The translations under genes and the position numbers were made by a program. From positions 1 through 18,146 of the forward strand of contig JBBTED010000116.1 in NCBI GenBank assembly GCA_038042445.1: a stretch of DNA of 18,146 nt, given 5' to 3'. The notes below the pieces were generated by a model. That model made no database searches and was not told where the DNA came from. It worked only from the letters and a program-made list of their open reading frames with translations. Position 1 is the stretch's first letter, and every line of letters starts with the position of its first letter. The stretch is from Candidatus Firestoneibacteriota bacterium. GTDB taxonomy: Bacteria; Oederibacteriota; D2-FULL-39-29; JBBTED01. This document shows positions 837 to 18,144 of the stretch, one piece after another.

Positions 837-936
837 GTAGTTGCTGATTTATCAGCATTTTTAAAAAGTGATTTATGTTTTAAAGATAAACCAACAAATT
901 GGTTGTTGCAAGTAATGCCGATAAATCGGCAACTAC
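837..936. repeat. Family A inverted doublet (REPIN-like)
   Basis: GTAGTTGCTGATTTATCAGCA (837-857, +) and TGCCGATAAATCGGCAACTAC (916-936, -) with a 58-nt spacer. Confidence 0.9.
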
Positions 937-970
937 ATATTGTATTTTAGAATGGTTATCAAATTTATTC

Positions 971-999
971 TTTACAAGAAAAATATCATACTTTATACT
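971..999 (+). promoter_or_regulatory. Putative sigma70 promoter for the radical SAM-amidase-pgeF operon
   Basis: TTTACA (971-976) - 17 nt - TATACT (994-999), 28 nt upstream of ATG1028; the AT-rich background lowers specificity. Confidence 0.5.
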
Positions 1000-1027
1000 A
1001 TAAACACAAATTCTAAATAATTTAAAA

Positions 1028-2626
1028 ATGAGTAAAAAAATACCATTAACTAATATTAATACAAAAGATGAAATAAATCTTTGTTTTGCAAATAAATCTG
1101 CGGATGTATCATTTGCTATTGGGTTTCCGGAAAGCTACTATATTGGTATGTCAAATTTAGGGTGGCAGGTTATTTATGCAATTTTAAATGCAAGAAAGGA
1201 TGTGATATGTGAGAGGTTTTTTTTAAATGATAATTCTAAAATTTGTACTGTAGAAAACAGAAATTCGCTTAAAGATTTTGATTTTGTTGGGTTTTCCCTA
1301 TCTTTTGAATTAAATTATATTAATGTCCTGAAAATTTTAAAGCTTGCAAAAATACCATTACTTTCTAATGAACGCAAATATAATGACCCAATTATTATAG
1401 CAGGAGGAGTGTGCGCAAGTTATAATCCAGAACCATTAGCGAATTTCATTGATGTATTTGTGATTGGAGATTCAGAAGAAGTCATTAGCGAAATTATTGA
1501 TAAATATAAAAAAATAAAAGCAGATTCACGAGACAAAATATTATTAGAACTTGCAAATATACCGGGAGTATATGTTCCAAAATTTTATACTCCGATATAT
1601 AACAGCGATAACACGATTAAAAAATTTGAAATAGAGCATAATGTTCCAAAAACAATAAAACGCAGAATTGTCCAAAATCTTGATATTTGCCCTGGGATGT
1701 CGGCGATACTAACACCAAATACTGAATTTGGAAAAATGCTTTTAGTAGAAATAAATCGCGGATGTTCACGTATGTGTAAATTTTGTGTAACAAGTTTTAT
1801 ACAAACTCCTGTGAGACGTAGAAGTTTGGCTTGTGTTATGGATATAATAGAAAAAGGACTAAAATGGACAAATAAAATAGGATTGGTTGGCACAAGTATA
1901 ACAGATTATCCGGAGATAGATGAACTTGTAACATTTATAATTAAAAAAAATGCATATTTATCAACTTCATCTTTGCGTGCAGAAGGTGCTTCCGATATAC
2001 TAATTGAGGCTCTTGGAAAAGGTGGACAAAAAACATTTACTATTGCAGTAGAAACAATGTCAGAGAAGTTGCAGAAAATAATCAAAAAAGAAATAAAAGA
2101 AGAAACGATTTATTCTGTTGTATCAAAAGCAATAAAAAATGATATAATAAATATCAAACTTTATTTTATGATAGGTTTACCGGAAGAAAATATGCAGGAT
2201 ATTGATATAAACATAAGATTTATAAAAAGACTTGTTAAGTATTTTATTGAAACGAGTGTTTCTACTGGTAGAATAGGTAAAATAATTGCTGGATTTTCGG
2301 TATTTATTCCAAAACCTTTTACTCCATTTGAATCTGAGCAGATGGAAAACATAAAAAATTTAAAACAAAAAATGCAGTATTTAAAAGGTGAAGTAACTGG
2401 TATACCGAATTTAGAATTGAGATGTGAAAGTTTGCATAATGCTGTTTTACAAGGTGTTTTTTCAAGAGGAGACAGAAGAGTTGGTGGTATTTTGGATTAT
2501 GCAGTTAATAGTGGTGTTGATTTAAAGACAAGTTTAAAAAATTTAACTAAATCAGATATTGATTTTCATATTTATGGTAACTCTAAAGGAAGTGGAATTT
2601 TGCCATGGAAACATTTAAACAGTTGA
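1028..2626 (+). CDS. B12-binding-domain-like radical SAM protein (TIGR03960-like)
   Basis: CxxxCxxC motif EINRGCSRMCKFC; N-terminal FPESYYIGMSNLG, GFSLSFELNY, IIAGG..YNPEP; KLYFMIGLPEE; FIPKPFTPF; SRGDRR. Confidence 0.88.
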   Translation: MSKKIPLTNINTKDEINLCFANKSADVSFAIGFPESYYIGMSNLGWQVIYAILNARKDVICERFFLNDNSKICTVENRNSLKDFDFVGFSLSFELNYINVLKILKLAKIPLLSNERKYNDPIIIAGGVCASYNPEPLANFIDVFVIGDSEEVISEIIDKYKKIKADSRDKILLELANIPGVYVPKFYTPIYNSDNTIKKFEIEHNVPKTIKRRIVQNLDICPGMSAILTPNTEFGKMLLVEINRGCSRMCKFCVTSFIQTPVRRRSLACVMDIIEKGLKWTNKIGLVGTSITDYPEIDELVTFIIKKNAYLSTSSLRAEGASDILIEALGKGGQKTFTIAVETMSEKLQKIIKKEIKEETIYSVVSKAIKNDIINIKLYFMIGLPEENMQDIDINIRFIKRLVKYFIETSVSTGRIGKIIAGFSVFIPKPFTPFESEQMENIKNLKQKMQYLKGEVTGIPNLELRCESLHNAVLQGVFSRGDRRVGGILDYAVNSGVDLKTSLKNLTKSDIDFHIYGNSKGSGILPWKHLNS

Positions 2627-3942
2627 AAAAATCCATATTAAACATTTTAATATTTACTCTGGTTTTATCGTTTAATTTCAGCGATGTTGCATTTACTGCT
2701 ACATCAACAAAGAAAAGTTCTACAACAAAAACACAACCTTCTAAAAAATCATCAAAATCTACAAAATCCAAAAAGGTAGTTAATAAGAAAAAAAATATAA
2801 TAATAAAAATAGCTTCTACTAATGAGCAAACAGAAATGAAATTTGATGTTAAGAGTGTAAATGGAGTGTTAAAAATATCAATTCCAAGAGCATGCGAGGT
2901 ATTGAAAGTAGGATATTCTTATTCAGAATTAACTAATAGGATTGTTCTTATATATAATAACAGAAAAACAGTATTATTTTTGGATTCAAAATATTTTCTT
3001 TGTGAGAATGAAAGAAATATAGAAATGGAAGATGCTCCTTCTAAAGATGAAAAAGGCATATTGATTTCTGGAAAAAGTTTTGCAAGTATATTGAGCGCTC
3101 TTTTTAATTGTGAAGTTTTTTGGAATGAAACAAGAATGACTCTGCTTATAGAAACAGATGCAAAAAAAGATGCTATATCTTCAGTGAATACATCATTTAA
3201 AGATAGTGGTTATAAATTAAAAAAAATAATTATAGACGCTGGTCATGGTGGCCATGATTCAGGCGCAAAAGGCCCGACAAAATTACTGGAAAAGGATATG
3301 AATATTGATATTGCAAATAGAATTGTGAGATTATTAAAAAGTAAATTGCCAATTGAAATAATAATGACTCGGACAGATGATACTTTTATAAGTTTGCAGG
3401 AAAGGGTTAATATTGCAAATACGAATAATGCAGATCTTTTCGTAAGTATTCACTGTAATGCAAAGGGACGCAGGGTATCTGCTGAAAATGCGTATGGTAC
3501 TGAGTCGTATATTTTTGCAGAAGTTGCTTCAGATGAAAATGCTGCAGAAGTTGCACAACGTGAAAATATTGGGGCTCCTACAGATTTCTTGAGTTTTTTA
3601 TTAAATGATCTTCAAAAAAAATCTACAGAAAGTGTGAGTATTTTAATGGCTGGCTATATAGAAGATAAATTAGTTAATGATGTTGGATTATATGGTAGAA
3701 AAAATAGTATGATAATGCGTGCTCCATTTTATGTGCTTGCGCGCACCAAAATGCCTGCTGTTTTAGTTGAAGTTGCTTTTATTTCTAATCCTCAAGAAGA
3801 ACAAAAATTAGCAAGTCCTTATTTTCGCGAAAAGGTTGCTTTAGCTGTTTTTCAGGCAATAAAGAAATATCACAGTGAATTAAATTTAGATGAAGACAAA
3901 GCAAAAGAACCCATTCCTACTGAAAACCAGCAATCAAATTAG
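2605..3942 (+). CDS. N-acetylmuramoyl-L-alanine amidase (Amidase_3, AmiC-like) with signal peptide, Lys/Ser-rich linker and N-terminal accessory domain
   Basis: Zn-ligand motifs IIIDAGHGGHD, LLEKD, FVSIHCN, APFYVL, AVLVEVAFISN; AEVAQREN helix; hydrophobic N-terminus. Exact start uncertain. Confidence 0.92.
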   Translation: METFKQLKKSILNILIFTLVLSFNFSDVAFTATSTKKSSTTKTQPSKKSSKSTKSKKVVNKKKNIIIKIASTNEQTEMKFDVKSVNGVLKISIPRACEVLKVGYSYSELTNRIVLIYNNRKTVLFLDSKYFLCENERNIEMEDAPSKDEKGILISGKSFASILSALFNCEVFWNETRMTLLIETDAKKDAISSVNTSFKDSGYKLKKIIIDAGHGGHDSGAKGPTKLLEKDMNIDIANRIVRLLKSKLPIEIIMTRTDDTFISLQERVNIANTNNADLFVSIHCNAKGRRVSAENAYGTESYIFAEVASDENAAEVAQRENIGAPTDFLSFLLNDLQKKSTESVSILMAGYIEDKLVNDVGLYGRKNSMIMRAPFYVLARTKMPAVLVEVAFISNPQEEQKLASPYFREKVALAVFQAIKKYHSELNLDEDKAKEPIPTENQQSN

Positions 3943-4705
3943 ATATTTTACCATACCTTCTTGGTATAAATTTAATGTTTCAGCTTTTATTTCAACTAAA
4001 CCTTATGATTTGTCATTTAAAGGCATTGCTGATAAATCAGCAACTACGATTAAAAATAGAAAACTTATTGCAGATGCTATGGGTTTTGGCATAGATAAAC
4101 TTGTTACTTGTCAGCAGACACATAGCAATAAAGTAGCAGTTATAAGAAAAAAAGATGTAGGCAAAGGAAATTTAAAATATAGTACAGCTATTGCTGATAC
4201 TGATGGTTTGATTACGAATTTAAAGAATATTCCTATAGCAATTTCTATAGCTGATTGTTTGCCTATATTTCTTGTAGATCCAGTTAATAAATCTATAGGA
4301 ATTGTTCATGCTGGCTGGAGAGGGACTTTTAAAAAAATAGCAGAAATTGCAATTTTGAAAATGAAAACAGTATTTAATAGTTCACCTGAAAATCTTAAAG
4401 TTGCTTTGGGTCCATCAATTGGTTCTTGTTGCTATGAAATAGATTTAAAATTAACTGATAAATTTCTTAAGGCATTTAAAAAAAATAGCTATGAAAATCC
4501 TTTTAATTGGACGAAAATTTTTAAAAAATCCGCTATACTTGATATTAAAGAATTAAATAGACGCCAGTTAATTAAAGTAGGAGTTTTGCCTGAAAATATT
4601 TTAGTAAATCCTGATTGTACAAAATGCAATTCAGATTTATTTTTTTCTTACAGAAGAGATAAAAACAATGCAGGCAGAATGATGGCTGTTATTTGGCAAA
4701 CTTAA
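3890..4705 (+). CDS. pgeF: Peptidoglycan editing factor / purine nucleoside phosphorylase, PgeF (YfiH) family
   Basis: QQTHS, TDGLIT, ADCLPI, HAGWRG, LGPSIG..CYE, CTKC, FFSYRR, GRMMAVI. Confidence 0.93.
   Translation: MKTKQKNPFLLKTSNQIRYFTIPSWYKFNVSAFISTKPYDLSFKGIADKSATTIKNRKLIADAMGFGIDKLVTCQQTHSNKVAVIRKKDVGKGNLKYSTAIADTDGLITNLKNIPIAISIADCLPIFLVDPVNKSIGIVHAGWRGTFKKIAEIAILKMKTVFNSSPENLKVALGPSIGSCCYEIDLKLTDKFLKAFKKNSYENPFNWTKIFKKSAILDIKELNRRQLIKVGVLPENILVNPDCTKCNSDLFFSYRRDKNNAGRMMAVIWQT
4027..4047 (-). repeat. Family A element (T variant) inside pgeF
   Basis: TGCTGATAAATCAGCAACTAC, identical to the intergenic copy 4768-4788; translated as (I)ADKSATT. Confidence 0.92.
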
Positions 4706-4735
4706 GGTGGTTTTTCGTATACATCATGAAATTTA

Positions 4736-4790
4736 TTGTAGTTGCCGATTTATCGGCAGTTTTTTTATGCTGATAAATCAGCAACTACAA
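4736..4790. repeat. Family A inverted doublet between convergent genes; may double as a bidirectional terminator or 3' stabiliser
   Basis: TT-GTAGTTGCCGATTTATCGGCA (4738-4758) - GTTTTTTTA - TGCTGATAAATCAGCAACTAC (4768-4788)-AA. Confidence 0.92.
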
Positions 4791-4796
4791 AGATTG

Positions 4797-5738
4797 TTAC
4801 AGTTTTTCTATTATTGCCTGAGCTAAAAGAGGAATCATTATTTCGTGGTGTCCTGTTATTGCATATCCTTTTCCACCTTTTAAAGTAGGTCTTGTTATAA
4901 CATTTGTAATAGGTCTATAATGTTGAATCATATCAAAATTTACAGTAGTAAATTTATAAACTTTGTATCCAAGATTTCTAGATATTGATAGCGCTTTTAA
5001 AAAAACTTCTGGCATTATAACAGCAGATCCGCAATTTAATATTACTCCGTTTTCAAGCTTAGAAACTTCATTAGTGAATATTTTAAAGTCAATAAAACTA
5101 CTGTTGCCTATAGCAGCTCCGTTTGTTTCAGGATGCTGATGAATAATATCAGTACCTATTGCAACATGAACAGTTGCTGGAATATTCAATAAATATGCTG
5201 TGGCAAGTATACTCAGGTTTTTATATGGTGCTTTAAGAATAATTATTTTTTTTCCAATAGATTCGCCCATTCCTGTGTTGTCAGATATACTATGATTAAT
5301 TGCTTCGTTAATTAATTTTCCGGTTTCTTCTGCCATTCCAAAACTTCCGTCTGCTAATGCTGTTGTTACTTCCTCAGAGGTTGTGCCTGCTAATGCAATT
5401 TCAAAATCATGAATACTTGCAGCGCCGTTCATAGCAATAGCAGTAATAACTTTTCTTTTCATAAGATCTATAATCACAGGTCCAAGTCCGCACTTAATAA
5501 TATGGCCTCCAATCATTAGTATAACCTGTTTTTTATGTTTGTGGGCTAAAACAATATCGTTAATTACTTGTTTTAATTTCTGTGCAGCTAATATATTCGG
5601 TAGATTGGAAATAAAGTTATTAAATAAAATTTTCTTCTTTCCAGATTTGGCAAAATTTGTAATTTTTACCTTACTTTTTCTGCGTAATATACTATATCTT
5701 TTAATTTTAGTCAGATTTATCTGTTTATATTTGCTCAT
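4797..5738 (-). CDS. Conserved protein of unknown function, GSU2086-like (deoxyhypusine-synthase-like fold)
   Basis: Motifs GGHIIKCGLGP, AMNGAASIHDFE, GSFGMAEETG, TVHVAIGTDIIHQHP, GSAVIMPEVFLKA, GHHEIMIPLL; ATGA overlap with the upstream gene. Confidence 0.7.
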   Translation of the reverse strand: MSKYKQINLTKIKRYSILRRKSKVKITNFAKSGKKKILFNNFISNLPNILAAQKLKQVINDIVLAHKHKKQVILMIGGHIIKCGLGPVIIDLMKRKVITAIAMNGAASIHDFEIALAGTTSEEVTTALADGSFGMAEETGKLINEAINHSISDNTGMGESIGKKIIILKAPYKNLSILATAYLLNIPATVHVAIGTDIIHQHPETNGAAIGNSSFIDFKIFTNEVSKLENGVILNCGSAVIMPEVFLKALSISRNLGYKVYKFTTVNFDMIQHYRPITNVITRPTLKGGKGYAITGHHEIMIPLLAQAIIEKL

Positions 5739-6865
5739 TGATTTATTTTCCTTGCCTGACCTTTGTCTATTATTATACCTTCTGTTAACACTACATTTAT
5801 AGCGCCAACAAGAAACGCTTTTGCAGCCATTTTTACTGGAATATGTCTCACATCATCAGTTACCCATATTGTTATATCGCCTTCCTGTTTGAATATACTT
5901 TCAAAATTCATAATAGGTTTAACAACTAAAGTATTAAATTTGCCTGCTGGAACTTTTACTACTTCTTTATTTATTATTTGAACTTTTAAATTATGGAATT
6001 CTCCTTCAGAATATACTGTAATAGGTATATCTTTCCCAATTTCAACTTTTTGTGTTCTAAAGTAAAAAAAACAAGAAAGTATATCATGGACATTATCAGG
6101 CGCATTATAAATTTTATTTTCTTCAGTAACTGTATTTTTTTCATTATCAAAGTAAGCATTTGAATTCTTTTTTAATGTTCCTTCTACAAGATATTGTTCA
6201 AGGCGAATAGGCAAAAATGAATAAACATCAATATATGTTTCTACTCTATCATCTACTTTGTGAAATGTTGAAAAAAATGGCAAAGATTTTGCAGTTGTAA
6301 CAATATGATATGCATCTTTGCCTTCTGTATTTGTTATTTCTCTGACTTCCATAGTAGCTATACCTGCAGTTATTTTCATATATTGTATTGCAAAGGTAAG
6401 TTTTTCTCCAGATCCAAATGCAAAATTTTGAATTTTAACTTGTCGTTTAGATAAATCTTTTACTGTTGTTTTTTTTGCCGATAAATCGGCAACTACGGGG
6501 TTTTCCTGTTTTGCAATTGTCGTTGTTTCTAAAGATTTTTCTTTAGATTCTGATGTCTGTAGTCTGATGTCTGTAGTTTGTAGTTGTGGAGATGATTCTT
6601 TTTTATCAATAATAATTGCTTCTTCCTGTTTTGCAACTTCTACAGGGGCTTTAGTTTCTGGAATAATTGTAGGTTTATCCTGTGTGTTTTGTGCAAGTAA
6701 AGTTTTAGAATCAGTTGAATCCTCAGATTTTTTGCTTTCCTTGTTTTCTGCTTGTCCTGTTACATCATACACTTTTATATAGCCACTTCTAACACTGCTT
6801 CCGCATCCTAAAAAAAACAAAAGTGATACAATAGCTGCTTTTATATATAAATTTTTACATTGCAT
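5735..6865 (-). CDS. DUF3108-domain lipoprotein
   Basis: Likely start ATG6865 (MQCKNL...) rather than TTG6910; lipobox FLG|C; long low-complexity linker; C-terminal FGSGEKLTF, VDDRVETYID, VKVPAGKFNT, IWVTDDVRHIPVK. Confidence 0.8.
   Translation of the reverse strand: MQCKNLYIKAAIVSLLFFLGCGSSVRSGYIKVYDVTGQAENKESKKSEDSTDSKTLLAQNTQDKPTIIPETKAPVEVAKQEEAIIIDKKESSPQLQTTDIRLQTSESKEKSLETTTIAKQENPVVADLSAKKTTVKDLSKRQVKIQNFAFGSGEKLTFAIQYMKITAGIATMEVREITNTEGKDAYHIVTTAKSLPFFSTFHKVDDRVETYIDVYSFLPIRLEQYLVEGTLKKNSNAYFDNEKNTVTEENKIYNAPDNVHDILSCFFYFRTQKVEIGKDIPITVYSEGEFHNLKVQIINKEVVKVPAGKFNTLVVKPIMNFESIFKQEGDITIWVTDDVRHIPVKMAAKAFLVGAINVVLTEGIIIDKGQARKINQ
6476..6496 (-). repeat. Family A element (C variant) inside the DUF3108 gene
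   Basis: TGCCGATAAATCGGCAACTAC, identical to 916-936; read on the coding strand as VVADLSA. Confidence 0.92.
6549..6590. repeat. Heptamer tandem repeat inside the DUF3108 linker
   Basis: TCTGATG TCTGTAG TCTGATG TCTGTAG TTTGTAG TTGTGGA (five clear units plus one degenerate, 42 nt). Confidence 0.75.
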
Positions 6866-6907
6866 AATTGATATTTTTATTTTGCAAATATATAATAAAT
6901 TTCCTTT

Positions 6908-6962
6908 CAAAAGAGTATTCCAAAAGAGGATACTCTTTTGGTCATTCGCCTTCGGCGAATGA
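6908..6962. repeat. Two adjacent hairpins in the divergent intergenic region
   Basis: CAAAAGAGTAT..ATACTCTTTTG (6908-6940) and TCATTCGCC-TTC-GGCGAATGA (6942-6962). Confidence 0.75.
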
Positions 6963-7088
6963 AATAACGAATCAATGAAAAACGATAAATTTCAAGATAA
7001 AGTAACACGTGCATTCCCGTGGATATCTATTGCATAATAACATAAATTAATGTAAGAAACAACCTAAATTTTATATTAGATAAAGAGT

Positions 7089-7106
7089 TTGACTTTTAAA
7101 TGTCAA
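7089..7106. promoter_or_regulatory. Candidate palindromic operator overlapping a -35-like hexamer upstream of the pilin gene
   Basis: TTGAC-T-TTTAAA-T-GTCAA, an 18-bp palindrome with one mismatched pair, 23 nt before ATG7130. Confidence 0.35.
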
Positions 7107-7129
7107 TATGATAATTAAATATTTAAGCT

Positions 7130-7579: not shown

Positions 7580-7609
7580 TTTGCAGATACTATTTGTTTT
7601 TTAAAATAT

Positions 7610-7639: not shown

Positions 7640-7673
7640 TAGTTTTATTACCTAAAGTCATTCGTATAGTCAA

Positions 7674-8828
7674 ATGACCAAAGGGAATATTGTAAGTATG
7701 AAAAATAAATTACAACGGCAGATTGAAATCTTGAAGGAAAAAAATTCTAATCAAGAGAAAAAACTTGAAGCTCTTACTATTATGTATGAAGTCAGCAAAA
7801 GTGTGGCTTCATTATTCAAGTTGTCTGATATATTAAAAATAATTTTGAATAAAGCAACAATTAAATTAAAATGTGAAATCGGTTCCATTTTATTAGTTGA
7901 TGAAGAAGGCGAATATCTTACAATAGCAGTTGCAAAAGGATTGTCGCAGAAAATTGTTTTGCATACTCGATTAAAAATTGGCGAAAGAATTTCCGGGTGG
8001 GTAGTTAAACATAAAAAACCTTTACTGGTTAAAAATATTGAAAAAGATAAAAGATTTACTATTAGAAATTCTGAAAAATATTACAACAAATCATTAATAT
8101 CAGTACCAATAATAATTGATACGCATAAAGTAGTTGGAGTTATAAATATTAATAATAAACATACCAGAGAATCTTTTTCAAATGATGATTTGCAGTTGCT
8201 TAAAGCATTGGCGTCTCAGGCTGCAATTGCAATTGAGAAAACGAAGCTTTATCAAAATTTACAGGATGTATATATGCGGACTATAAAAGCATTGGCAGTT
8301 GCTATAGATGCAAAAGATCACTATACGCACAATCATTCAGAAAATGTTACAAAATATGCAGTAGAAATTGCTGAAGAAATGGGTTTAAATTCTGAAGAAG
8401 TAAAAAATATAAACCATGCTTCTCAACTTCATGATTTAGGTAAGATTGGTATACAGGATTATATCTTGTCAAAATCAGATAAACTTTCTGCTGAAGAATG
8501 GAAAAAAATAAAAGAACATTCATTAAAAAGTGCAGAAATACTTGAGCCACTTGTATTTTTAAATGATGTAATAGAAATGGTGAAACAGCATCATGAAAGA
8601 TATGATGGAGCAGGTTATCCTTATGGAGTTAAGGGAGATAATATCAGGATTGGAGCACGTATAATGGCAGTTGCAGATGCTTATGATGCAATGATTTCTG
8701 ACAGGCCATATAGGAACTCTATGTCTCAAAAAGATGCAATAGCAGAACTTGAAAAATGCAGTGGTAAACAATTCGATCCTCAGGTTGTCCATGCTTTCTT
8801 GAGGGTATTAGAAAGGAGAAAGAAATGA
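7674..8828 (+). CDS. GAF + HD-GYP domain c-di-GMP phosphodiesterase
   Basis: Coiled coil, GAF (GERISGWV, SLISVPI, VGVININNK, LASQAAIAIE), AKDHYTHNHS, LHDLGKIG, HHERYDGAGYP, VADAYDAMISDRPYR, GKQFDP; start may be ATG7698. Confidence 0.93.
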   Translation: MTKGNIVSMKNKLQRQIEILKEKNSNQEKKLEALTIMYEVSKSVASLFKLSDILKIILNKATIKLKCEIGSILLVDEEGEYLTIAVAKGLSQKIVLHTRLKIGERISGWVVKHKKPLLVKNIEKDKRFTIRNSEKYYNKSLISVPIIIDTHKVVGVININNKHTRESFSNDDLQLLKALASQAAIAIEKTKLYQNLQDVYMRTIKALAVAIDAKDHYTHNHSENVTKYAVEIAEEMGLNSEEVKNINHASQLHDLGKIGIQDYILSKSDKLSAEEWKKIKEHSLKSAEILEPLVFLNDVIEMVKQHHERYDGAGYPYGVKGDNIRIGARIMAVADAYDAMISDRPYRNSMSQKDAIAELEKCSGKQFDPQVVHAFLRVLERRKK

Positions 8829-11062
8829 GTGAAGCGAATATTGTATTGCCTGCTTTTGGTACATTAGAGTGGACGTTATTGTGGGCGGTTTTAGTTTCTG
8901 CTTTTATAGGAATTGGATATGGACTGTATCTTGTCCGCAAGGTTTTAAAGGCTGATCCGGGTTCTCAAAAAATGGTTGAAGTAGCAAAAGCTATTGAAGA
9001 AGGTGCAATGGCGTATTTACGTCAGCAGTTTAGAACAATGATATGGTTTGTAATTATAATAGCAATAGGGCTTTATGTAATGTATGGCGCTATTTATCCA
9101 AGAGCAATATCAGTAGGAATTAGTATTGCATTTTTAGCAGGAGTTATGGCTTCTTATGGAGCCGGATATGTTGGAATGTGGTTAGCAGTAAGAGGTAATG
9201 TTCGCACAGCAAATGCTGCATTAAAAAGTTTTAAAGATGCTTTGCATGTTGCATTTCAGGCAGGAACAGTTTCAGGTATGTTTACTGTGGGATTTGGTCT
9301 TTTAGGCGCTACTATTATATTCATGGTGTTTAAAGAAAACGCTATGAAAGTTTTAATTGGATTTGGATTTGGAGGATGTCTTGCTGCGTTATTTATGAGA
9401 GTTGGAGGCGGAATATATACAAAAGCTGCTGATGTAGGCGCAGATTTAGTTGGAAAAGTTGAAGCAGGAATTCCAGAGGATGATCCAAGAAATGCAGCAA
9501 CTATAGCAGATAACGTAGGCGATAATGTTGGAGATTGCGCAGGTATGGCTGCAGATGTGTTTGAGTCATACGAGGTTACATTGGTAGCATCAATAATTTT
9601 AGCTGCAGCGTTACTTCTTGATTCCGGATTTTTGACAAAATATGGTGTAAATGCAAATTCATTTGCTTTGAAATTAATAATTTTCCCATTACTTATTCGT
9701 GGTATTGGAGTATTTGCATCAATAATTGGAACACTTTTTGTTAGAGTAAAAGGAGAAGAATTAAAAGATCCAATGAAACCAATAGCCATAGGATATTTGG
9801 TTTCATCAATTGCTGCAATTGCAGGTTTTGCTCTTATTAATGCTCTGTATCTTAAAGATCCTGTAACAGGGCAGATAGATTTTAGATTTTTCTGGGCATC
9901 AACTGTTGGGATTGGTCTTGCAATAGCTACTTTATTGATAACAAATTATTTTACACATCCGGATAAGCGAGCTGCTACTGAAACAGCGCAGGCTTCAAAA
10001 ACAGGTCCTGCAACGTTGTTATTAAATGGAATGGCTGAAGGTATGGAGTCTTCAGTATGGGCAATAGTTGTTATAGCTGGGACAATTCTTGCATCACTTT
10101 TTATATTTAATGGTGAATTAGGTTTAGCGTCGTATGGCATAGCATTAGCGGGTTTAGGATTGCTTACAACTACAGGTTTTATACTTGCAATGGATACTTA
10201 TGGTCCGATAACTGACAATGCGCATGGAATTTTTGAAATGTCCGGTATACACGAAGAAAAAGCAGGCAGAATACTTTCACGTATGGATGCTATAGGAAAT
10301 ACTACAAAAGCATTAACAAAAGGTTTGGCAATATCTACTGCTGTTATAGCTGCAATTTCATTGTTCAGGTCATTTATTGATGAAGCTAAACTTACTGAAA
10401 TTGGTATACAGATAAATTCGCCAAAGGTATTTGTAGGGCTTTTAATAGGTGGTGCAGTTCCATTTTTATTTTCATCTTTTGCATTAAAGGCAGTAGGTCG
10501 TGCTGCTTTTATGGTTGTTGAAGAAGTTCGTAGGCAATTCAGAGAAAAGCCGGGAATAATGGAATTTAAGGAAAAACCAGATTATGGGCGATGTGTTAGT
10601 ATAGTAACTTCTGCTGCACAAAGGGAATTAATAGGCCCGGGAATTTTGGCAATAGCTACACCTATATTAGTAGGATTTAGTTTAGGTGCTGGTGCATTAG
10701 GTGGATATTTGTGTGGTGCAATACTTACAGGACAACTTTTGGCAGTTTATATGTCAAATACCGGTGCAATATGGGATAATGCAAAGAAAAAAATAGAAGA
10801 TGGATTTATGGGAGGTAAAGGGACGGAACATCATAAAGCTGCAGTTATAGGGGATACAGTTGGTGATCCATATAAAGATACAGCAGGCCCGGGATTAAAT
10901 CCATTAATTAAGGTTATGAATCTTGTTGGTATTTTGATTGCTCCAATTGTGATACGAGACATTTCTATGGGAGCACGTTTTACAATTGCAGCATTGATGC
11001 TTGCACTTTTGGGTACTGCAATTTATTTAAGCAGACGAGGAGCGGTAAAAGCGCAAAATTGA
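8825..11062 (+). CDS. hppA: Membrane-bound ion-pumping pyrophosphatase, predicted K+-independent H+-PPase
   Basis: [52 protein letters not shown] (Lys at the K+-dependence determinant), [17 protein letters not shown]. Confidence 0.95.
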
Positions 11063-11096
11063 CCCGAAGGGTCATCCTGAACGAAGTGAAGGATCT
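11060..11096 (+). repeat. GTCA-foot element preceded by a TGACCC-GAA-GGGTCA mini-hairpin; overlaps the hppA stop codon
   Basis: TGACCCGAAGGGTCATCCTGAACGAAGTGAAGGATCT; its reverse complement matches 13359-13395 at 34/37 positions. Confidence 0.88.
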
Positions 11097-11107
11097 AAAA
11101 ATTTATA

Positions 11108-11170
11108 GTCATTGCGAGCGATAGCGAAGCAATCTCGAGATTGCTTCGTCGCTTTGCTTTTTGCAATGAT
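11108..11170. repeat. GTCA-foot inverted doublet (RPE-like)
   Basis: GTCATTGCGAGCGATAGCGAAGCAATCTC / GAGATTGCTTCGTCGCTTTGCTTTTTGCAATGAT. Confidence 0.88.
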
Positions 11171-12800: not shown

Positions 12801-12819
12801 TAAAATTTAGTGAACATTA

Positions 12820-12925
12820 TGTCATTCCCGCGTGTAGTAAGCGGGAATCCAGTAGGCTTGTCCTTGTATGTCTTAAGCAGGCAAAAATAGCAAAAGACTG
12901 GATTCCTGTTTTCACAGGAATGACA
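12820..12925. repeat. GTCA-foot inverted doublet with dRS3/RPE-like ATTCCC...GGGAAT core
   Basis: TGTCATTCCCGCGTGTAGTAAGCGGGAATCCAGT ... ACTGGATTCCTGTTTTCACAGGAATGACA; runs directly into the AGGAGA SD of nuoA. Confidence 0.9.
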
Positions 12926-12938
12926 GGAGACAAATATT

Positions 12939-13292
12939 ATGAATGAATATATTGTTGTTGTGGTTTTTTTAATTTTAGGGATATTATTTACAGTTGGTTC
13001 CTTGGTTTTTTCTTATTTAGTAAGGGAATCAAAACCAGATGTAAATAAATCTTTAACTTATGAATGTGGAGAATCGCCTGTTGGTGATGCGTGGATACAA
13101 TTTAATTTAAGATATTATATTTTTGCATTATTATTTGTTATATTTGATGTAGAAGTCATATTTTTATTTCCATGGGCAGTTGTGTTTAAAAAAATCGGAA
13201 TTTTTGCACTTATTGAAATGTTTATTTTTCTGGGTATACTTATATTAGGTTTAATATATGCGTGGAAAAAGAAAGCATTGGAGTGGACGTAA
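12939..13292 (+). CDS. nuoA: NADH-quinone oxidoreductase subunit A
   Basis: TYECGE, RYYIFALLFVIFDVEVIFLFPWAV, YAWKKKALEW; SD AGGAGA. Confidence 0.96.
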   Translation: MNEYIVVVVFLILGILFTVGSLVFSYLVRESKPDVNKSLTYECGESPVGDAWIQFNLRYYIFALLFVIFDVEVIFLFPWAVVFKKIGIFALIEMFIFLGILILGLIYAWKKKALEWT

Positions 13293-13294
13293 GA

Positions 13295-13322
13295 AAAGTG
13301 CAAAATGCAAAGTGTAAAACTT
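13295..13322. repeat. Short heptamer tandem repeat after the nuoA stop
   Basis: AAAGTGC AAAATGC AAAGTGT AAAACTT. Confidence 0.55.
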
Positions 13323-13395
13323 GTCATTCTGAGGCAAAGCCGAAGAATCTCATTTGAGAGATCTTTCACTTCGTTCAGGATGACCTTTCAGGTCA
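13323..13395. repeat. GTCA-foot inverted doublet plus terminal TGACCT-TTC-AGGTCA mini-hairpin
   Basis: GTCATTCTGAGGCAAAGCCGAAGAATCTC ... GAGATCTTTCACTTCGTTCAGGATGAC-CTTTCAGGTCA, ending 4 nt before the nuoB ATG. Confidence 0.9.
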
Positions 13396-13399
13396 TACT

Positions 13400-13912
13400 A
13401 TGGGAATTATATTAGATAAATTACCGTATGTTACGGAAAAAATACCGGGTGGAAAAATAATTTTAACAAGTGCAGATTATTTCATAAACTGGTCGCGTTC
13501 TTCTTCGTTATGGCCGCTTACATTTGGATTGGCCTGTTGTGCAATTGAAATGATGTGTGCTTATGCTTCACGGTTTGATTTTGATAGATTTGGGGTTTTT
13601 CCAAGACCAACTCCAAGGCAGGCGGATGTAATGCTTGTAGCAGGTACAATTACAAAAAAAATGGCTTCGCGTATAAAATTACTTTACGAGCAAATGCCTG
13701 AACCAAAATTTGTAATATCAATGGGTAGTTGTTCCAATACCGGTGGTCCATTTTATGATTCTTATTCTGTAGTAAAAGGTATAGATAAAGTTATTCCTGT
13801 TGATGTTTATGTAGCAGGTTGTCCTCCGAGACCTGAAAACTTAATGTATGCAGTAATAAAACTGCAGGAAAAAATAAAGAAAGCGTCCTTATGCAACAAA
13901 GTGAAATCTTAA
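13400..13912 (+). CDS. nuoB: NADH-quinone oxidoreductase subunit B
   Basis: [52 protein letters not shown] (N2 cluster ligands). Confidence 0.97.
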
Positions 13913-14361
13913 ATAAAATAACACAAAAGTTTCCAAAAATCGAAGAAACTAAATGTCTTGAAGGTTCATTTAAAGACTATACATTGGCAATACAGGTTAA
14001 TGCCGATGAGATATTACCTATTTGCGAATTTTTAAAAACAAATGAGGAATTATGTTTTGATTCACTAATGTGTCTTTCAGGTGTTGATCTTAAAGACTAT
14101 ATGAAAGTGGTATACCATCTTTATTCTTACAAACATAATCACAAATTAACTATTAATGTTGTTTTGAATCATGATAATTCTGTTGTAAATTCAGTAAGCA
14201 GAATTTGGAAAACAGCAAATTGGCATGAAAGAGAAGTTTATGATTTACTTGGAATAAAATTTGAAGGCCATCCAGATTTAAGAAGAATATTATTGCCACA
14301 GGATTGGGTAGGACATCCTCTACGAAAAGATTATGTCCATACACCAGACCAATACGATTGA
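13891..14361 (+). CDS. nuoC: NADH-quinone oxidoreductase subunit C
   Basis: [52 protein letters not shown]. Confidence 0.96.
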
Positions 14362-14375
14362 AAATGTTTTTTCAT

Positions 14376-14476
<101 letters not shown>

Positions 14477-14489
14477 CGATTAAAAAATT

Positions 14490-15605
14490 ATGAATAATAA
14501 TATGGAAGAAATAAAATTAGAAGAGATGTATTTGAACTTGGGACCTCAGCATCCAAGTACACATGGTGTCCTGCGAGTAGGTTTAACTTTAGATGGTGAG
14601 GTTATTGTAAAGGCCGACCCTGATATAGGGTATCTTCACAGGGGTATGGAAAAGCTTGCGGAGAACCGAACCTATGCACAAAATATTGCTTTATCTGACA
14701 GGTGGGATTATTTGGCTTCAATGAGCAATAATTTTGCATTTTGTCTGGCAGTGGAAAAAATAATGAAAGTCCAGATTCCTGAACGTGCTGAATATATAAG
14801 GGTTTTAGTCGCGGAATTAAATAGAATTGCAAGCCATTTGATATTATTTGGAACTTATGGTGTTGATATAGGTGCAGTTACACCTTTTATGTATGCACTT
14901 AGAGAGAGAGAAATGATTTTGGATTTATTTGAGTCAATATGCGGTGCAAGAATGACATATAATTATTTTAGGATAGGTGGTGTATCAAATGATTTGCCTG
15001 AAGGATTTGTAAAGAAACTTGAAGAATTTACAGAGTGGTTTAAAAAACGTTTGTCGGAGTATGACGATTTACTTTCAAATAATGTTATATTTTTGGACAG
15101 AACAAAAAATATAGGAATGCTTACAAAAGAAGATGCAATTGATTACGGAGTAACAGGACCTAATTTACGCGCTTCAGGTGTCCAATTTGATATCCGCAAA
15201 AATGATACATATTCCATTTATTCAAAATTTGATTTTGAGATTCCAGTAGGGACACAAGGAGATTGCTGGGATAGATATTACATCAGAATAAAAGAAATGA
15301 AAGAAAGTATAAATATTATTGAGCAAATTTTGAGTAAGTTGCCAGATGGTGAGATTTGCACAAAAGTTCCTAAAATTTTAAGGCCGCCTGTTGGTGAAGT
15401 TTATAGCCGTATAGAAGCCCCAAGAGGTGAACTTGGAATTTATTTGATAAGTGATGGAAATACAAATCCATATCGCCTTAAAGTCCGAGGTCCATCATTT
15501 GTAAATCTTGAAGTTTTGCCGGAACTTCTAAAAACATGGAAAATTGCAGATGTTGTAGCAATACTTGGAAGTCTTGATATAGTTTTAGGTGAGGTAGATA
15601 GATGA
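14490..15605 (+). CDS. nuoD: NADH-quinone oxidoreductase subunit D
   Basis: NLGPQHPSTHGVLR, IGYLHRGMEK, ELNRIASH, GARMT, GVTGPNLRASG, EAPRGELG, GSLDIVLGEVDR; no NiFe CxxC motifs. Confidence 0.97.
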   Translation: MNNNMEEIKLEEMYLNLGPQHPSTHGVLRVGLTLDGEVIVKADPDIGYLHRGMEKLAENRTYAQNIALSDRWDYLASMSNNFAFCLAVEKIMKVQIPERAEYIRVLVAELNRIASHLILFGTYGVDIGAVTPFMYALREREMILDLFESICGARMTYNYFRIGGVSNDLPEGFVKKLEEFTEWFKKRLSEYDDLLSNNVIFLDRTKNIGMLTKEDAIDYGVTGPNLRASGVQFDIRKNDTYSIYSKFDFEIPVGTQGDCWDRYYIRIKEMKESINIIEQILSKLPDGEICTKVPKILRPPVGEVYSRIEAPRGELGIYLISDGNTNPYRLKVRGPSFVNLEVLPELLKTWKIADVVAILGSLDIVLGEVDR

Positions 15606-16639
15606 TACAAATGCCAGGTCTTGAAATAATATTGGATAAAGTTAAAGAAAATGTGGAATTTTTGGCATTTAGAATTGGAATTCCTGATTATGTAGTTTCT
15701 CTTGTATTTAATATAGTTGGTGCAGCGTTGATTTTAGGTTTTTTGCTTGTAACAGTTATGTTTTTAGTATGGTTAGAAAGAAAAATAAGCGCTCATATGC
15801 AGGCAAGGTTAGGGCCTATGAGAACTGGTGGTTGGCATGGATGGTCGCAGTCAATTGCTGATGCAATAAAATTATTGTTAAAAGAAGATATTATTCCAAA
15901 TTGTTCAGATAAATGGGTGCATAGAATTGCTGCGGTATTGATGTTTATACCGGCATTTGTATCTTTTGCAATAATTCCTTTTGATAAAAATGTGCAGGCA
16001 GTTGATTTAAATATAGGAATACTTTTTATATTTGCTATTTCTTCTATTACAGTAATTGCAATAGTAATGGCAGGTTGGGGTTCAAATAATAAATATTCTT
16101 TATTTGGAGCATTGCGTTCTGCTGCACAAATGATAAGTTATGAAGTTCCTTTAGTTCTTTCTGTAGTAGGAGTAATTATGATAACAGGAAGTCTTAAGAT
16201 GTCCGATATAGTAAATGCGCAGTCAAAAGTATGGTTTGTTTTTGTCCAGCCTGTTGGATTTCTATTATATATAATAACCGGTCTTGCAGAAATAAATCGT
16301 GTTCCATTTGATATTCCTGAAGCTGAATCCGAACTTGTTTCAGGGTATCATACTGAATACAGTGGTATGAAGTTTGCATTTTTCTTTTTGGCTGAATATG
16401 CTAATATGTTTTTAGTTGCAAGTATTGCCACTACATTATTTTTAGGCGGCTGGCATGGACCTTTTTTGCCGCCTTTTTTATGGTTTCTCATAAAAACTTA
16501 TTCAATAGTATTTTTGTATATGTGGGCAAGATGGACTTTGCCACGTCTTAGAGTTGATAGATTGATGGATTTTGGCTGGAAAATTTTAATGCCTATTGCA
16601 TTTTTAAATATAATAATTACAGCAATAATTATATTATGA
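15602..16639 (+). CDS. nuoH: NADH-quinone oxidoreductase subunit H
   Basis: WLERKISAHMQARLGP, ADAIKLLLKEDI, SNNKYSLFGALRSAAQMISYE, AEINRVPFDIPEAESELVSGYHTEYSG, LPRLRVDRLM. Confidence 0.97.
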   Translation: MIQMPGLEIILDKVKENVEFLAFRIGIPDYVVSLVFNIVGAALILGFLLVTVMFLVWLERKISAHMQARLGPMRTGGWHGWSQSIADAIKLLLKEDIIPNCSDKWVHRIAAVLMFIPAFVSFAIIPFDKNVQAVDLNIGILFIFAISSITVIAIVMAGWGSNNKYSLFGALRSAAQMISYEVPLVLSVVGVIMITGSLKMSDIVNAQSKVWFVFVQPVGFLLYIITGLAEINRVPFDIPEAESELVSGYHTEYSGMKFAFFFLAEYANMFLVASIATTLFLGGWHGPFLPPFLWFLIKTYSIVFLYMWARWTLPRLRVDRLMDFGWKILMPIAFLNIIITAIIIL

Positions 16640-16668
16640 AAAATTGTCATTTAGACTGTGTTATAAAG

Positions 16669-16724
16669 GTAGTCGCAGGCTTTAGCCTGCGGAAAAAATA
16701 CCGCAAGCTAAAGCTTGCGACTAC
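16669..16724. repeat. GTAG-foot inverted doublet, family B
   Basis: GTAGTCGCAGGCTTTAGCCTGCGG - AAAAAATA - CCGCAAGCTAAAGCTTGCGACTAC. Confidence 0.92.
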
Positions 16725-16755
16725 TACTGCAAAGAATTTTACAGGAGATTTTTAG

Positions 16756-17187
16756 GTGAAATATATTACTGACATAATTTATGGAAGCATAAGTATTATT
16801 AAAGGGTTTATTGTAACAATAAAAGTTTTTTTTAAAAAGCCGATTACTGTGCAATATCCGGATGAGAAAGCTCCTATATCTTTAAGATTCAGGGGGCGAT
16901 TAATACAGCTTACTAATAAAGAAACAGGCGAGGGAATATGTGATGGCTGTGGAATATGCGCAAAATTTTGCCCTGCACAATGTATAAGTTTAAAAGCATA
17001 TAAAGATGAAGCATCTGGTAAGAGGAAAACAGAATATTATAATATAGATTTTGGACGTTGTATGTTTTGTGGAATATGTGTAGAACAATGTCCAAAAAAA
17101 TGTTTAATTCATTCTCAGGATTATGAATTTGCAGTATACACCCGTGATGAACTAACATATACAAAAGACAAAATGCTGGTAAGGTAA
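16756..17187 (+). CDS. nuoI: NADH-quinone oxidoreductase subunit I
   Basis: GTG start after AGGAG; TVQYPDEK, RFRG, two 4Fe-4S motifs CDGCGICAKFCP and CMFCGICVEQCP. Confidence 0.96.
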   Translation: MKYITDIIYGSISIIKGFIVTIKVFFKKPITVQYPDEKAPISLRFRGRLIQLTNKETGEGICDGCGICAKFCPAQCISLKAYKDEASGKRKTEYYNIDFGRCMFCGICVEQCPKKCLIHSQDYEFAVYTRDELTYTKDKMLVR

Positions 17188-17205
17188 ACATCATTTTCAC
17201 ATATA

Positions 17206-17228
17206 ATAGGTCAGGCATCTTGCCTGAC
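17206..17228 (+). repeat. Single (G/A)TAG-foot hairpin, family C
   Basis: ATAG-GTCAGGCA-TCT-TGCCTGAC; resembles GTAGGACAGG...CGCCTGTC in the barrel gene. Confidence 0.7.
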
Positions 17229-17256
17229 AAATGACTCAAGGGGGTTTTAACGGTAT

Positions 17257-17736
17257 ATGTTTTTAATATTAGCAATAATAGCATTAATTTCAGCAATGTT
17301 AGTTGTTTCGCTTAAAAATATTATGCACTGCGCTCTTTTTCTTGGGGTTTTTCTCCTTACAGTTGCAGGAATATTTATTTTGCTTTCAGCGGATTTTCTG
17401 GGAATAATTCAGATTTTGCTTTATGTTGGTGGAATCCTGATTTTAATATTATTTGCAATAATGCTTACCGCAAGAATTTCAAGTAAATTAATTAAAGAAG
17501 CAAATGAGCAAAAAGGAATTGCGTTTTTTGTATGCACAATTCTTTTAGCTGCTATTTTACTTGTTCTAAGAAGCACAACTTTTTCAGTAAAGAATGTATT
17601 TTTTACACCTGTTGATGGAACTGTGGCAGAAATAGGCAAATTGTTATTTACAACTTATGTTCTGCCATTTGAAGTTGCATCAATAGTATTATTGGTTGCA
17701 CTAATTGGTTCAATAGCTTTGGGGGTTAGGAAATAA
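17257..17736 (+). CDS. nuoJ: NADH-quinone oxidoreductase subunit J
   Basis: ADFLGIIQILLYVGGILILILFAIMLT, IGKLLFTTYVLPFEVASIVLLVALIGSI. Confidence 0.95.
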   Translation: MFLILAIIALISAMLVVSLKNIMHCALFLGVFLLTVAGIFILLSADFLGIIQILLYVGGILILILFAIMLTARISSKLIKEANEQKGIAFFVCTILLAAILLVLRSTTFSVKNVFFTPVDGTVAEIGKLLFTTYVLPFEVASIVLLVALIGSIALGVRK

Positions 17737-18044
17737 TGGGTACATTATATCATTATTTAGCATTGTCATCTTTGGTTTTTGTAATAGGGATATATGGTGT
17801 CCTAACCAGAAGAAATGCTATTAGTCTTTTGATGTCCATAGAACTTATGCTTAATGCTGCAAATATAAATTTAGTAGCATTTAACCATTTTCTTGGCGAT
17901 TCTTTATTTCAAGGACAGATATTTGTGCTTTTTGTAATAACTTTAGCAGCTTGCGAAGCTGCAGTAGGATTAGTTTTAATACTTTCTATATACAGGCATA
18001 TCAAAACAATAGATGTGCAAAAAATGAATTTATTGAAATGGTGA
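17736..18044 (+). CDS. nuoK: NADH-quinone oxidoreductase subunit K
   Basis: GIYGVLTRRNAI..LMSIELMLNAANINLVAF, LAACEAAVGL, LLKW; TAATG overlap with nuoJ. Confidence 0.96.
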   Translation: MGTLYHYLALSSLVFVIGIYGVLTRRNAISLLMSIELMLNAANINLVAFNHFLGDSLFQGQIFVLFVITLAACEAAVGLVLILSIYRHIKTIDVQKMNLLKW

Positions 18045-18086
18045 TATTATTCATTGCCGAGTAGCCGGCATAAATGAGAATAAAAA

Positions 18087-18144
18087 TGTCACCCTGAACT
18101 TGTTTCAGGGTCTAATGAGATGCCGAAACAAGTTCGGCATGACA
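18087..18144. repeat. GTCA-foot inverted doublet at the window end
   Basis: TGTCACCCTGAACTTGTTTCAGGGTCT - AATG - AGATGCCGAAACAAGTTCGGCATGACA. Confidence 0.9.

Follow-up and report, generated by a model that had tools for sequence, protein, structure and literature searches.

We analyzed an 18,146-bp stretch of DNA (32% GC; hereafter the window) from the uncultured bacterium Candidatus Firestoneibacteriota, contig JBBTED010000116.1, and find that about half of the intergenic DNA in this housekeeping region is made up of hairpin doublets tagged with GTAG or GTC, a dense and unusually clean example of its kind. The repeats are members of two already described superfamilies of repetitive extragenic palindromic (REP) elements, not of a new class. 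Directly observed are their anatomy, the statistics that go with it, the agreement with motifs in print and the recurrence of the units across many phyla. As the best explanation, to which we would give a probability of roughly 70%, we propose that both kinds of repeat are single-stranded DNA (ssDNA) hairpins with an unpaired tag, both of them served by enzymes encoded elsewhere in the genome.

Repeat elements, at 43% GC compared with 32% for the window as a whole, occupy 706 of its 1430 intergenic bases and are present in 10 of the 11 gaps that measure at least 60 bp. Perfect hairpins of 7 bp or more with three or more G/C number 17, and 13 of them lie outside the called open reading frames (ORFs). 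A GTAG or TGTC tag is found on nine of the 17, including two GTAG-tagged copies within ORFs that belong to family A, described below. When folded as ssDNA, seven doublets (837-936, 4738-4788, 11108-11170, 12820-12925, 14384-14473, 16669-16724 and 18087-18144) gave z scores between -4.6 and -8.5, and weaker folds were obtained for 13319-13399 (z = -2.15) and 11058-11100 (z = -1.4). A search of the window with Rfam covariance models gave 0 matches at gathering thresholds. An earlier note on this DNA, made from its letters, had described repeats built from a short foot plus a hairpin, mostly arranged as inverted doublets and sharing a common grammar; shuffling, folding and coverage all indicate that these are real. 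The same note had seen no transposase here, and Pfam bears this out: all 18 long ORFs have housekeeping or envelope functions, with no transposase, integrase or nuclease gene among them. Since the window holds no enzyme gene, any enzyme that serves the repeats acts in trans. The units sit mostly between co-directional operon genes, namely between nuoA and nuoB, nuoC and nuoD, nuoH and nuoI, nuoI and nuoJ, and after nuoK.

The GTAG-tagged repeats are the simpler of the two cases. Family A (GTAGTTGCYGATTTATCRGCA) has seven copies at no more than 2 mismatches, starting at positions 4 (+), 837 (+), 916 (-), 4027 (-), 4738 (+), 4768 (-) and 6476 (-), and its pattern had 0 matches in 200 shuffles of the window. 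The inverted doublets 837/916 and 4738/4768, as well as the family B doublet at 16669-16724, had already been noticed and are confirmed here; three further single copies of family A (4, 4027 and 6476) had been overlooked. GTAG stands at the start of all seven family A copies and of both family B arms, as expected of REPs, which carry GTAG or GTGG 0-2 nt 5' of the hairpin foot. Likewise, the arrangement of multi-copy palindromes in inverted doublets that marks REPs and REPINs is seen in three GTAG doublets (z = -6.9 to -8.5). The GTAG-tagged features of the window are these:

4..24, plus strand: family A variant GTAGTAGCCGATTTATCGGCG, a single copy at the window edge with 2 mismatches to the family pattern and a small hairpin fold.
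837..936, units 837-857 (+) and 916-936 (-): family A inverted doublet, tags outward, spacer of 58 nt (z = -6.9), between a porin-like gene and a radical-SAM gene.
4027..4047, minus strand: lone family A unit in the reading frame of the YfiH/Cu-oxidase_4 ORF, in its 5' part, where it contributes the peptide GIADKSATT.
4738..4788, units 4738-4758 (+) and 4768-4788 (-): family A inverted doublet with a T-rich spacer of 9 nt, between convergent genes (z = -8.5), with a terminator-like score.
6476..6496, minus strand: family A single unit, in frame in a low-complexity linker of a DUF3108 lipoprotein, peptide NPVVADLSAKKT.
16669..16724, unstranded: family B inverted doublet between nuoH and nuoI (z = -8.0).

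The two arms of family B differ by a compensated stem change, CGCAGGC/GCCTGCG versus CGCAAGC/GCTTGCG. As to the in-frame copies of family A, the Pfam match of the YfiH/Cu-oxidase_4 protein runs from residue 46, so the unit at 4027-4047 falls within the aligned part. The homologues nearest to the two ORFs are only 43-50% identical, and the unit in the DUF3108 protein lies in a hypervariable linker, so each of the two copies may be either an insertion or ancestral sequence.

Families A and B are ordinary GTAG REP/REPIN-type elements: GTAG lies directly 5' of a G+C-richer hairpin, the inverted doublets can fold as one long hairpin, and there are many copies. In other bacteria, such a hairpin is recognized, and cut at GTAG, by the REP-associated tyrosine transposase (RAYT, or TnpA-REP), an HUH/Y1 transposase (PMC6006769, PMC3733652). 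By analogy, families A and B would be cut at GTAG by a putative RAYT encoded elsewhere in the genome. In one respect the window repeats differ from the published picture: REPs are usually described as species-specific (PMC6006769), whereas the exact 20-mer of family A is common to metagenome-assembled genomes (MAGs) that are labelled as several phyla.

That is, the exact family A 20-mer was found at 63 loci or more in contigs of other genomes; the loci we used (L001-L063, ~760 kb) were chosen by family A, not by the GTC units described below, and the contigs span 36-60% GC. Among the matches listed, at least 38 loci come from 7 MAGs labelled Elusimicrobiota and at least 18 from 6 MAGs labelled Deltaproteobacteria, while the remainder come from Ignavibacteria, Thermodesulfobacteriota, Patescibacteria, an unclassified bacterium and Anaerotignum. 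The last of these (L039) was taken as a chance match, the 20-mer lying within a 294-bp coding tandem repeat. The longest match to the window among the 63 loci listed is 384 bp at 65% identity, and none of these loci comes from the window's own genome. The sharing of the 20-mer between MAGs of several labelled phyla suggests either horizontal spread of the REP system or mis-binned contigs. Within the loci, family A copies are often paired with the arm GTAGTTGCCCATTTATGGGCR, which shows compensated stem changes, over a TTTTTAAAA-like spacer. One locus from an Elusimicrobiota MAG (L013:3560-4760) has at least five different GTAG hairpins clustered in a layout reminiscent of bacterial interspersed mosaic elements, among them a family A-like doublet with one extra stem base. 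The ORF between GTAG hairpins at L013:3696-4421 was considered as a transposase candidate and rejected, having no Pfam match and a low-complexity, secreted-type sequence.

For the enzyme itself, the loci provided one classical REPtron. In a MAG labelled Deltaproteobacteria, L021:19301-19843 (-) encodes a 180-aa Y1_Tnp protein (Pfam E = 1e-7) that is RAYT-like, with the motif HIH...YIHYNP, and is bracketed by inverted GGTAGGTTGGGTT... hairpins (GGTAGGTTGGGTTGAG...AAACCCAAC) of a GTAG family other than A. A phmmer search of the loci with this protein gave no second RAYT. A regular expression for RAYT motifs, a heuristic that proved too narrow, returned one match, without a Pfam match, and missed the L021 protein. 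Clustering of 213 neighbouring ORFs for genes that recur beside family A returned only syntenic duplicates and housekeeping genes. As a separate observation, several small genes for '23S rRNA-intervening sequence protein', a four-helix bundle of bAvd-like type, occur in repeat-rich loci (L024:12878-13243, L026:5852-6214, L051:13862-14254 and L051:17942-18301); the two in L051 are no more than 5 kb apart and close to TGTC hairpins.

The second superfamily accounts for the repeats that the earlier note had grouped by a 'GTCA foot'. Prokaryotic REPs were sorted by Di Nocera et al. in 2013 into a GTAG-tagged and a CGTC-tagged superfamily (PMC3733652). In the CGTC superfamily the tag is often TGTC, the stems are 8-9 bp and start with AT, the loops measure 4-5 and the tail is CCA (PMC3733652). 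Its members occur mostly as dimers, often heterodimers, with several families per genome and some intragenic copies; CGTC-1 is Neisseria dRS3, and the Rickettsia repeats RPE-6 and RPE-4 also fall in this class (PMC3733652). Units of this type are indeed present at all six places where GTCA-type loci had been reported:

11060..11096, plus strand: single GTC-class unit, a mini-hairpin GACCCGAAGGGTC followed by ATCCTGAAC...AGGAT-C, 92% complementary to 13359-13395; weak fold (z = -1.4).
11108..11170, unstranded: GTC-class doublet of the ATTGCGAG type with GTCATTGCGAGCGATAGCGAAGCAATC as its left arm and a decayed right arm; not covered by the published SRM pattern introduced below (z = -5.2).
12820..12925, unstranded: GTC-class doublet upstream of nuoA, both units passing the strict grammar given below (z = -4.6).
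13323..13396, unstranded: GTC-class doublet between nuoA and nuoB, left arm GTC-ATTCTGAGG...CCGAAGAAT-C (z = -2.15).
14384..14473, unstranded: GTC-class doublet between nuoC and nuoD, left unit NTS/dRS3-like (TGTCATTCCCGCGAAAGCGGGAATCCAG), right unit (-) with a decayed stem (z = -6.7).
18087..18144, unstranded: GTC-class heterodimer after nuoK, TGTC-ACCCTGAA-cttgt-TTCAGGGT-C and, on the minus strand, TGTC-ATGCCGAA-cttgt-TTCGGCAT-C (z = -6.3).

In our strict grammar, GTC is followed by a stem of 7 bp or more that opens with AT or AC and has no more than 1 mismatch, by a loop of 3-14 and then by C. Five window units conform to it; in 300 dinucleotide shuffles the mean was 0.147 and the maximum 3, so none reached five. 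All five of these perfect units carry TGTC, the imperfect ones TGTC, AGTC or GGTC. The stems of the five are 8 bp long (four starting with AT, one with AC), the loops measure 4, 4, 5, 5 and 9, and the tails read CCAG in the three dRS3-like units and CTA and CTC in the pair at 18087-18144, the C being invariant. In all five, GTC precedes the palindrome and C directly follows it; the exception in the window is an atypical hairpin at 6941-6963, which has G. The shared frame behind the 'GTCA foot' is thus real but better parsed in another way: its GTC closes a (Y)GTC tag, and its A opens the stem; similarly, the '(AT/GT)CY' of the earlier note is present but becomes the last stem pair plus the invariant C.

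The individual units vary within this frame. At 12820-12925, the left unit reads TGTC-ATTCCCGC-(9-nt loop)-GCGGGAAT-CCAG and the right unit (-) TGTC-ATTCCTGT-gaaa-ACAGGAAT-CCAG, while the unit at 14384-14411 is TGTC-ATTCCCGC-GAAA-GCGGGAAT-CCAG. Both arms of the heterodimer at 18087-18144 share the loop region GAACTTGTTTC. The right arm (-) of 13323-13396 is of the 11060 type with its mini-hairpin, and the element ends (13396) 3 nt 5' of the nuoB start codon; the unit at 11060-11096 overlaps the TGA stop codon of the H+-pyrophosphatase gene. In the ATCCTGAAC-type units (11060-11073 and 13383-13395), the GTC tag forms the 3' arm of the conserved mini-hairpin (GACCCGAAGGGTC or GACCTGAAAGGTC). Stems of the ATTGCGAG and ATCCTGAAC types are interrupted and share the stem and loop features of CGTC REPs only in part. 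Relatives of the 11108-11170 units are present in L025, L050, L051, L052 and L057.

Published motifs match directly. Chenal et al. (2025) extended dRS3 to a 28-nt sequence, NTS (CGTCATTCCCGCGMAVGCGGGAATCYRG), and found that thousands of genes for Ssn homologues (cd10448) are flanked by related motifs, SRM (PMC11893778). The NTS consensus at no more than 1 mismatch has one match in the window, 14384-14411 (T for the first C), and the strict SRM pattern has two, 12820-12852, which is the left unit of its doublet, and 14384-14411; neither pattern occurred in 200 shuffles. The dRS3 pattern likewise has one match, 14388-14407. The ATTCCC-N8-GGGAAT core pointed out earlier is therefore a genuine dRS3-type match, in a unit that shares 94% identity with copies from N. 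gonorrhoeae over 32 nt, but it occurs once; the unit at 12824 has a 13-base interior. The window also differs from the dRS3/NIME repeats of Neisseria in having no large clusters and no prophage context. The latter point bears on the notion that the units serve above all as targets where insertion sequences or site-specific recombinases act, as dRS3 does for the recombinase of a Neisseria filamentous prophage. Although dRS3 and REPs are targets of phage recombinase and of insertion sequences (PMC3733652, PMC11893778), there is no insertion sequence, integrase or prophage at any of the ~15 window loci, and serving as a target would leave the multiplication of the repeats unexplained; we regard this account as extremely improbable.

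The same units recur in distant genomes. With the unit at 14380-14415 as query, BLAST returned 40 records, 3 of them with at least 40 places each, and identities of 88-100% over 27-34 nt in N. gonorrhoeae, Sphingopyxis, Azospirillum, Legionella, Cupriavidus and others. The left unit of the 18087 heterodimer (ACCCTGAA) is identical over 25-27 nt on plasmids of Treponema saccharophilum and sphingomonads, and the arm pair 18087-18144 is also found, with a longer spacer, in L046 from a MAG labelled Deltaproteobacteria. The family A loci themselves contain TGTC-ATTCC... units, and we aligned 16 dRS3-like units, 3 from the window and 13 from 8 loci of 5 MAGs. All 16/16 share TGTC, AT, CC/GG, AT and the C that follows the palindrome, and four inner stem pairs change on both sides, although the 100% pairing and the GTC and AT positions are partly due to construction because the units were preselected as perfect tagged hairpins with GTC and an AT start. 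Neither the leading T nor the trailing C was a criterion of that preselection.

Together, these features indicate that the GTCA-foot families are, by their sequence, (C/T)GTC-tagged REPs, that is, the CGTC superfamily of 2013 and the NTS/SRM repeats of 2025. A GTCA class apart from that superfamily falls away, since tag variant, stem, loop and tail are the same: TGTC on all five perfect units, 8-bp stems starting with AT, loops of 4-5 and a CCA-type tail with its invariant C. In addition, dimers and heterodimers, several families in one genome, intragenic copies and the lack of an adjacent transposase are all shared with CGTC REPs. The differences are small, namely one window unit with a 9-nt loop and the ATTGCGAG type with a 5-bp clamp plus an internal loop; any assignment of window units to CGTC-1 or CGTC-2 goes by the published text description. 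A Sphingomonas plasmid (L064) has three different CGTC stem families as heterodimer doublets within 300 bp in the same layout as the window, so several families with one grammar in inverted doublets are the normal look of this superfamily. On that plasmid, from Sphingomonas hankookensis, three-type CGTC heterodimer arrays at 5902-6213 and 9273-9463 bracket the copper-resistance genes copB and copA in a motif-gene-motif order. Two family A units that are read through in frame within ORFs recall the Rickettsia RPE repeats, which sit in frame in genes, whereas these intragenic copies are of the GTAG class and RPE-6 and RPE-4 of the CGTC class.

The likeness to NTS/SRM extends to the HGTC tag, the AT-start hairpin, the C after the palindrome, and a high-density, intergenic placement, often on both sides of genes. 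It differs in that the window stems are mostly AT-richer and outside the SRM pattern, that GTAG REPs coexist at equal density, and that no ssn gene is seen. The two strict SRMs in 18 kb would amount to ~110 per Mb, a figure extrapolated from one small window but of the same range as that of N. meningitidis (200 per Mb).

With SRM comes a candidate enzyme. The gene ssnA (cd10448) encodes a 94-aa single-domain GIY-YIG protein and is spatially linked to NTS across phyla (PMC11893778). SsnA binds the NTS hairpin only as ssDNA and only on one strand, is inactive on RNA and double-stranded DNA, and cuts a few nucleotides upstream of the hairpin (PMC11893778). The key base for binding is the C immediately 3' of the palindrome, and cutting is governed by the three upstream bases, GTC (PMC11893778). 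An SRM lies near 71% of ssn homologues and on both sides of 42%; among genomes with more than 200 SRMs, 137/169 carry a homologue (PMC11893778). The view that no enzyme had been established for the GTCA-foot class is thus out of date, whereas the guess of a GIY-YIG nuclease named the right type, as SsnA attests (PMC11893778). A literature search on SsnA and GIY-YIG gave Chenal et al. and one unrelated review, with no later work.

By analogy with these papers, the GTC units of the window would be bound and nicked by a putative Ssn, a single GIY-YIG domain of ~90-100 aa. The nick would fall a few bases upstream, in the variable flank, with the C serving binding and GTC serving cutting. Such nicking would take place while the DNA is single-stranded, as in replication, DNA uptake or repair, and may underlie the spread of doublets. 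We infer that the genome encodes one or more Ssn homologues as well as a RAYT, which would act on the window copies. The earlier idea of more than one enzyme class, one for GTAG repeats and one for GTC repeats, is probably correct in this form, whereas mobilisation of the repeats by these enzymes and the coexistence of several of them in this genome are conjectures.

Several points weigh against the proposal that enzymes from another part of the genome serve both superfamilies. Neither the window nor the ~760 kb of loci from other genomes yielded a RAYT with family A or B repeats at its sides, and the RAYT link for these families comes from published knowledge of GTAG REPs (PMC6006769, PMC3733652), not from a gene seen. 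Pfam found no ssn gene among the 18 window ORFs, and a GIY-YIG domain in 0/69 ORFs near GTC hairpins in the loci, 0/191 small non-overlapping ORFs from the ~760 kb and 0/10 ORFs beside the Treponema copies. A regular expression for the GIY-YIG motif gave nothing convincing in the loci, and the annotated regions around matches in Sphingomonas, N. gonorrhoeae, Treponema and Novosphingobium contain no GIY-YIG annotation. The absence from the loci is a weak negative, because ssn occurs in one or a few copies and it was family A that guided the choice of the loci. The cultured Elusimicrobiota tabulated by Chenal et al. have 0-6 SRMs (PMC11893778, Supplementary Data 4): Elusimicrobium minutum counts 6 and lacks a homologue, Endomicrobium proavitum counts 3 and a homologue by 3/4 criteria, and Ca. 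Endomicrobium trichonymphae 0; Ignavibacterium album has 1 (PMC11893778). Replication of repeats by Ssn is no more than a hypothesis in the discussion of PMC11893778, where it is drawn from the parallel with RAYT and REP. Finally, only 2 of the ~13 GTC-class window units fit the strict SRM pattern, and SsnA lost its activity when the palindrome was altered with the hairpin kept (PMC11893778); for most stems the link to Ssn thus rests on the shared frame.

Given this sensitivity of SsnA to the stem sequence, stems that fail the pattern (ATTGCGAG, ACCCTGAA/ATGCCGAA and ATCCTGAAC/ATTCTGAGG) would need either Ssn variants of their own or another enzyme. A narrowed form of the earlier idea would have the non-SRM stems (ATTGCGAG, GAACTTGTTTC and ATCCTGAAC types) served by an undescribed enzyme that is neither Ssn nor RAYT. 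Besides the misfit of these stems and the stem sensitivity of SsnA (PMC11893778), the absence of six such strings from the supplementary files of PMC11893778 speaks in its favor, though these files list genomes, not motif sequences. We nonetheless consider it very unlikely, as the non-SRM stems share TGTC, the AT/AC start and the C with SRM units and co-occur with dRS3-like units on the same replicons, e.g., Novosphingobium resinovorum pSA1. Moreover, Ssn homologues have diverse specificities and the SRM pattern was hand-built from 29 genomes (PMC11893778). Since that pattern misses AT-rich variants, surveys based on it will undercount such genomes.

The GTC-class units might also be orphan relics, left behind after an Ssn-type enzyme that once spread or accompanied them was lost from the genome, with the copies now decaying. 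Some arms are visibly degraded (14441-14473, the right arm of 11108-11170, and 13319-13399 with z = -2.15), and an ssn homologue is missing from 19% of SRM-rich genomes (32/169; PMC11893778), a figure that also counts against our proposal. Decay would not predict five perfect hairpins with intact tag and C, nor compensated changes kept in the arms of heterodimers, and we think loss of the enzyme quite unlikely.

The setting of the units raises another alternative, in which the hairpins are mainly RNA-level elements that stabilize, process or attenuate polycistronic transcripts, or terminate them at convergent genes, so that no DNA enzyme is needed today. In its favor, almost every unit separates two co-directional genes of a single operon, the family A doublets contain T-rich spacers and resemble terminators by their scores at 4740 and 842, and many REPs are transcribed, as argued by Di Nocera et al. 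(PMC3733652). Scores on the plus strand were confined to these two family A doublets and a junction palindrome at 11124; units at 12902, 17210 and 18091 scored on the minus strand only, and the other nuo-operon units had no score. Nuo-internal GTC units have no T-run on the sense strand, which favors the reading of the earlier note over ordinary terminators, and ordinary intrinsic terminators were rejected as an account of operon-internal units for lack of a T-run on the transcribed strand. An RNA role also leaves unexplained why, from phylum to phylum, neither the unpaired TGTC nor the C behind the palindrome varies, and it does not account for the identical units in unrelated genomes or the copies within coding regions; nor is the RNA form bound by SsnA (PMC11893778). 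As the main function of the repeats we therefore judge it unlikely, but it can coexist with trans-acting enzymes as the best explanation. Most units are located within or next to operons, and since they are transcribed along with the genes there, RNA hairpins are a probable side effect; an influence on the nuo transcript is a likely by-product, and family A doublets with T-rich spacers may act as terminators, as at the convergent pair ~4706-4796.

A question for the field is whether Ssn nucleases merely cut their motifs or also spread them, and this genome would make a good test case because it combines several stem families, conserved heterodimers and both superfamilies. As a tentative and rather doubtful extension of trans-acting enzymes, the inverted heterodimer doublet could be a self-copying, REPIN-like unit, with one or more Ssn-type nucleases as domesticated mobilisers of the GTC class alongside a RAYT for GTAG. 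Each stem family (dRS3-like, GAACTTGTTTC, ATTGCGAG and ATCCTGAAC) would then have its own Ssn paralogue, and the doublets and 20-mers shared across phyla would reflect horizontal spread of enzyme-plus-repeat systems among co-resident bacteria. Some stems are common, letter for letter, to Neisseria, sphingomonads, Treponema and groundwater MAGs.

A few hairpins fit neither superfamily cleanly:

17209..17229, plus strand: perfect 8-bp hairpin GTCAGGCA-tct-TGCCTGAC between nuoI and nuoJ, not GTAG-footed (z = -5.0), single-copy in the window and the loci.
579..622, plus strand: GTAG, then a long AT-rich hairpin of 12 perfect bp and an extension, within the porin-like ORF (z = -6.3), single-copy.
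6941..6963, plus strand: hairpin GTCATTCGCC-ttc-GGCGAATGA, atypical in having G after the palindrome and a partly paired tag, single-copy in the window and the loci.

The first two had been joined as a GTAG 'family C', which is weak as a family, as 17209-17229 has ATAG as its 5' flank and both hairpins are single-copy; of this pair, the 17209 hairpin is the one that was compared with the loci. The hairpin at 579-622 is the longest perfect hairpin of the window and is read in frame in the porin-like ORF, with the peptide around VGQDNLVIEQDYRLSD. The third adjoins, at 6908-6940, a perfect 11-bp hairpin (CAAAAGAGTAT...ATACTCTTTTG) with a nested alternative; the two occupy the space between the divergent DUF3108 and pilin-like genes, and region 6905-6966, which covers both, folds with z = -8.3. 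A GTCATT...AATGAC pair at 7657-7678 was considered as an element and rejected (stem 6 bp, z = -1.9).

The genes among which these repeats lie were assigned by Pfam:

Part 1: a PorP/SprF-like porin, a radical-SAM protein, Amidase_3 and a YfiH/Cu-oxidase_4 protein.
Part 2: a weak deoxyhypusine-synthase-like protein, a DUF3108 lipoprotein and a pilin-like protein.
Part 3: GAF-HD and PilZ-GAF-GGDEF signalling proteins, an H+-pyrophosphatase, and nuoA, B, C, D, H, I, J and K.

The nuo cluster (12939-18044) has the order nuoA-B-C-D-H-I-J-K, with nuoH immediately 3' of nuoD and without nuoE, F and G.

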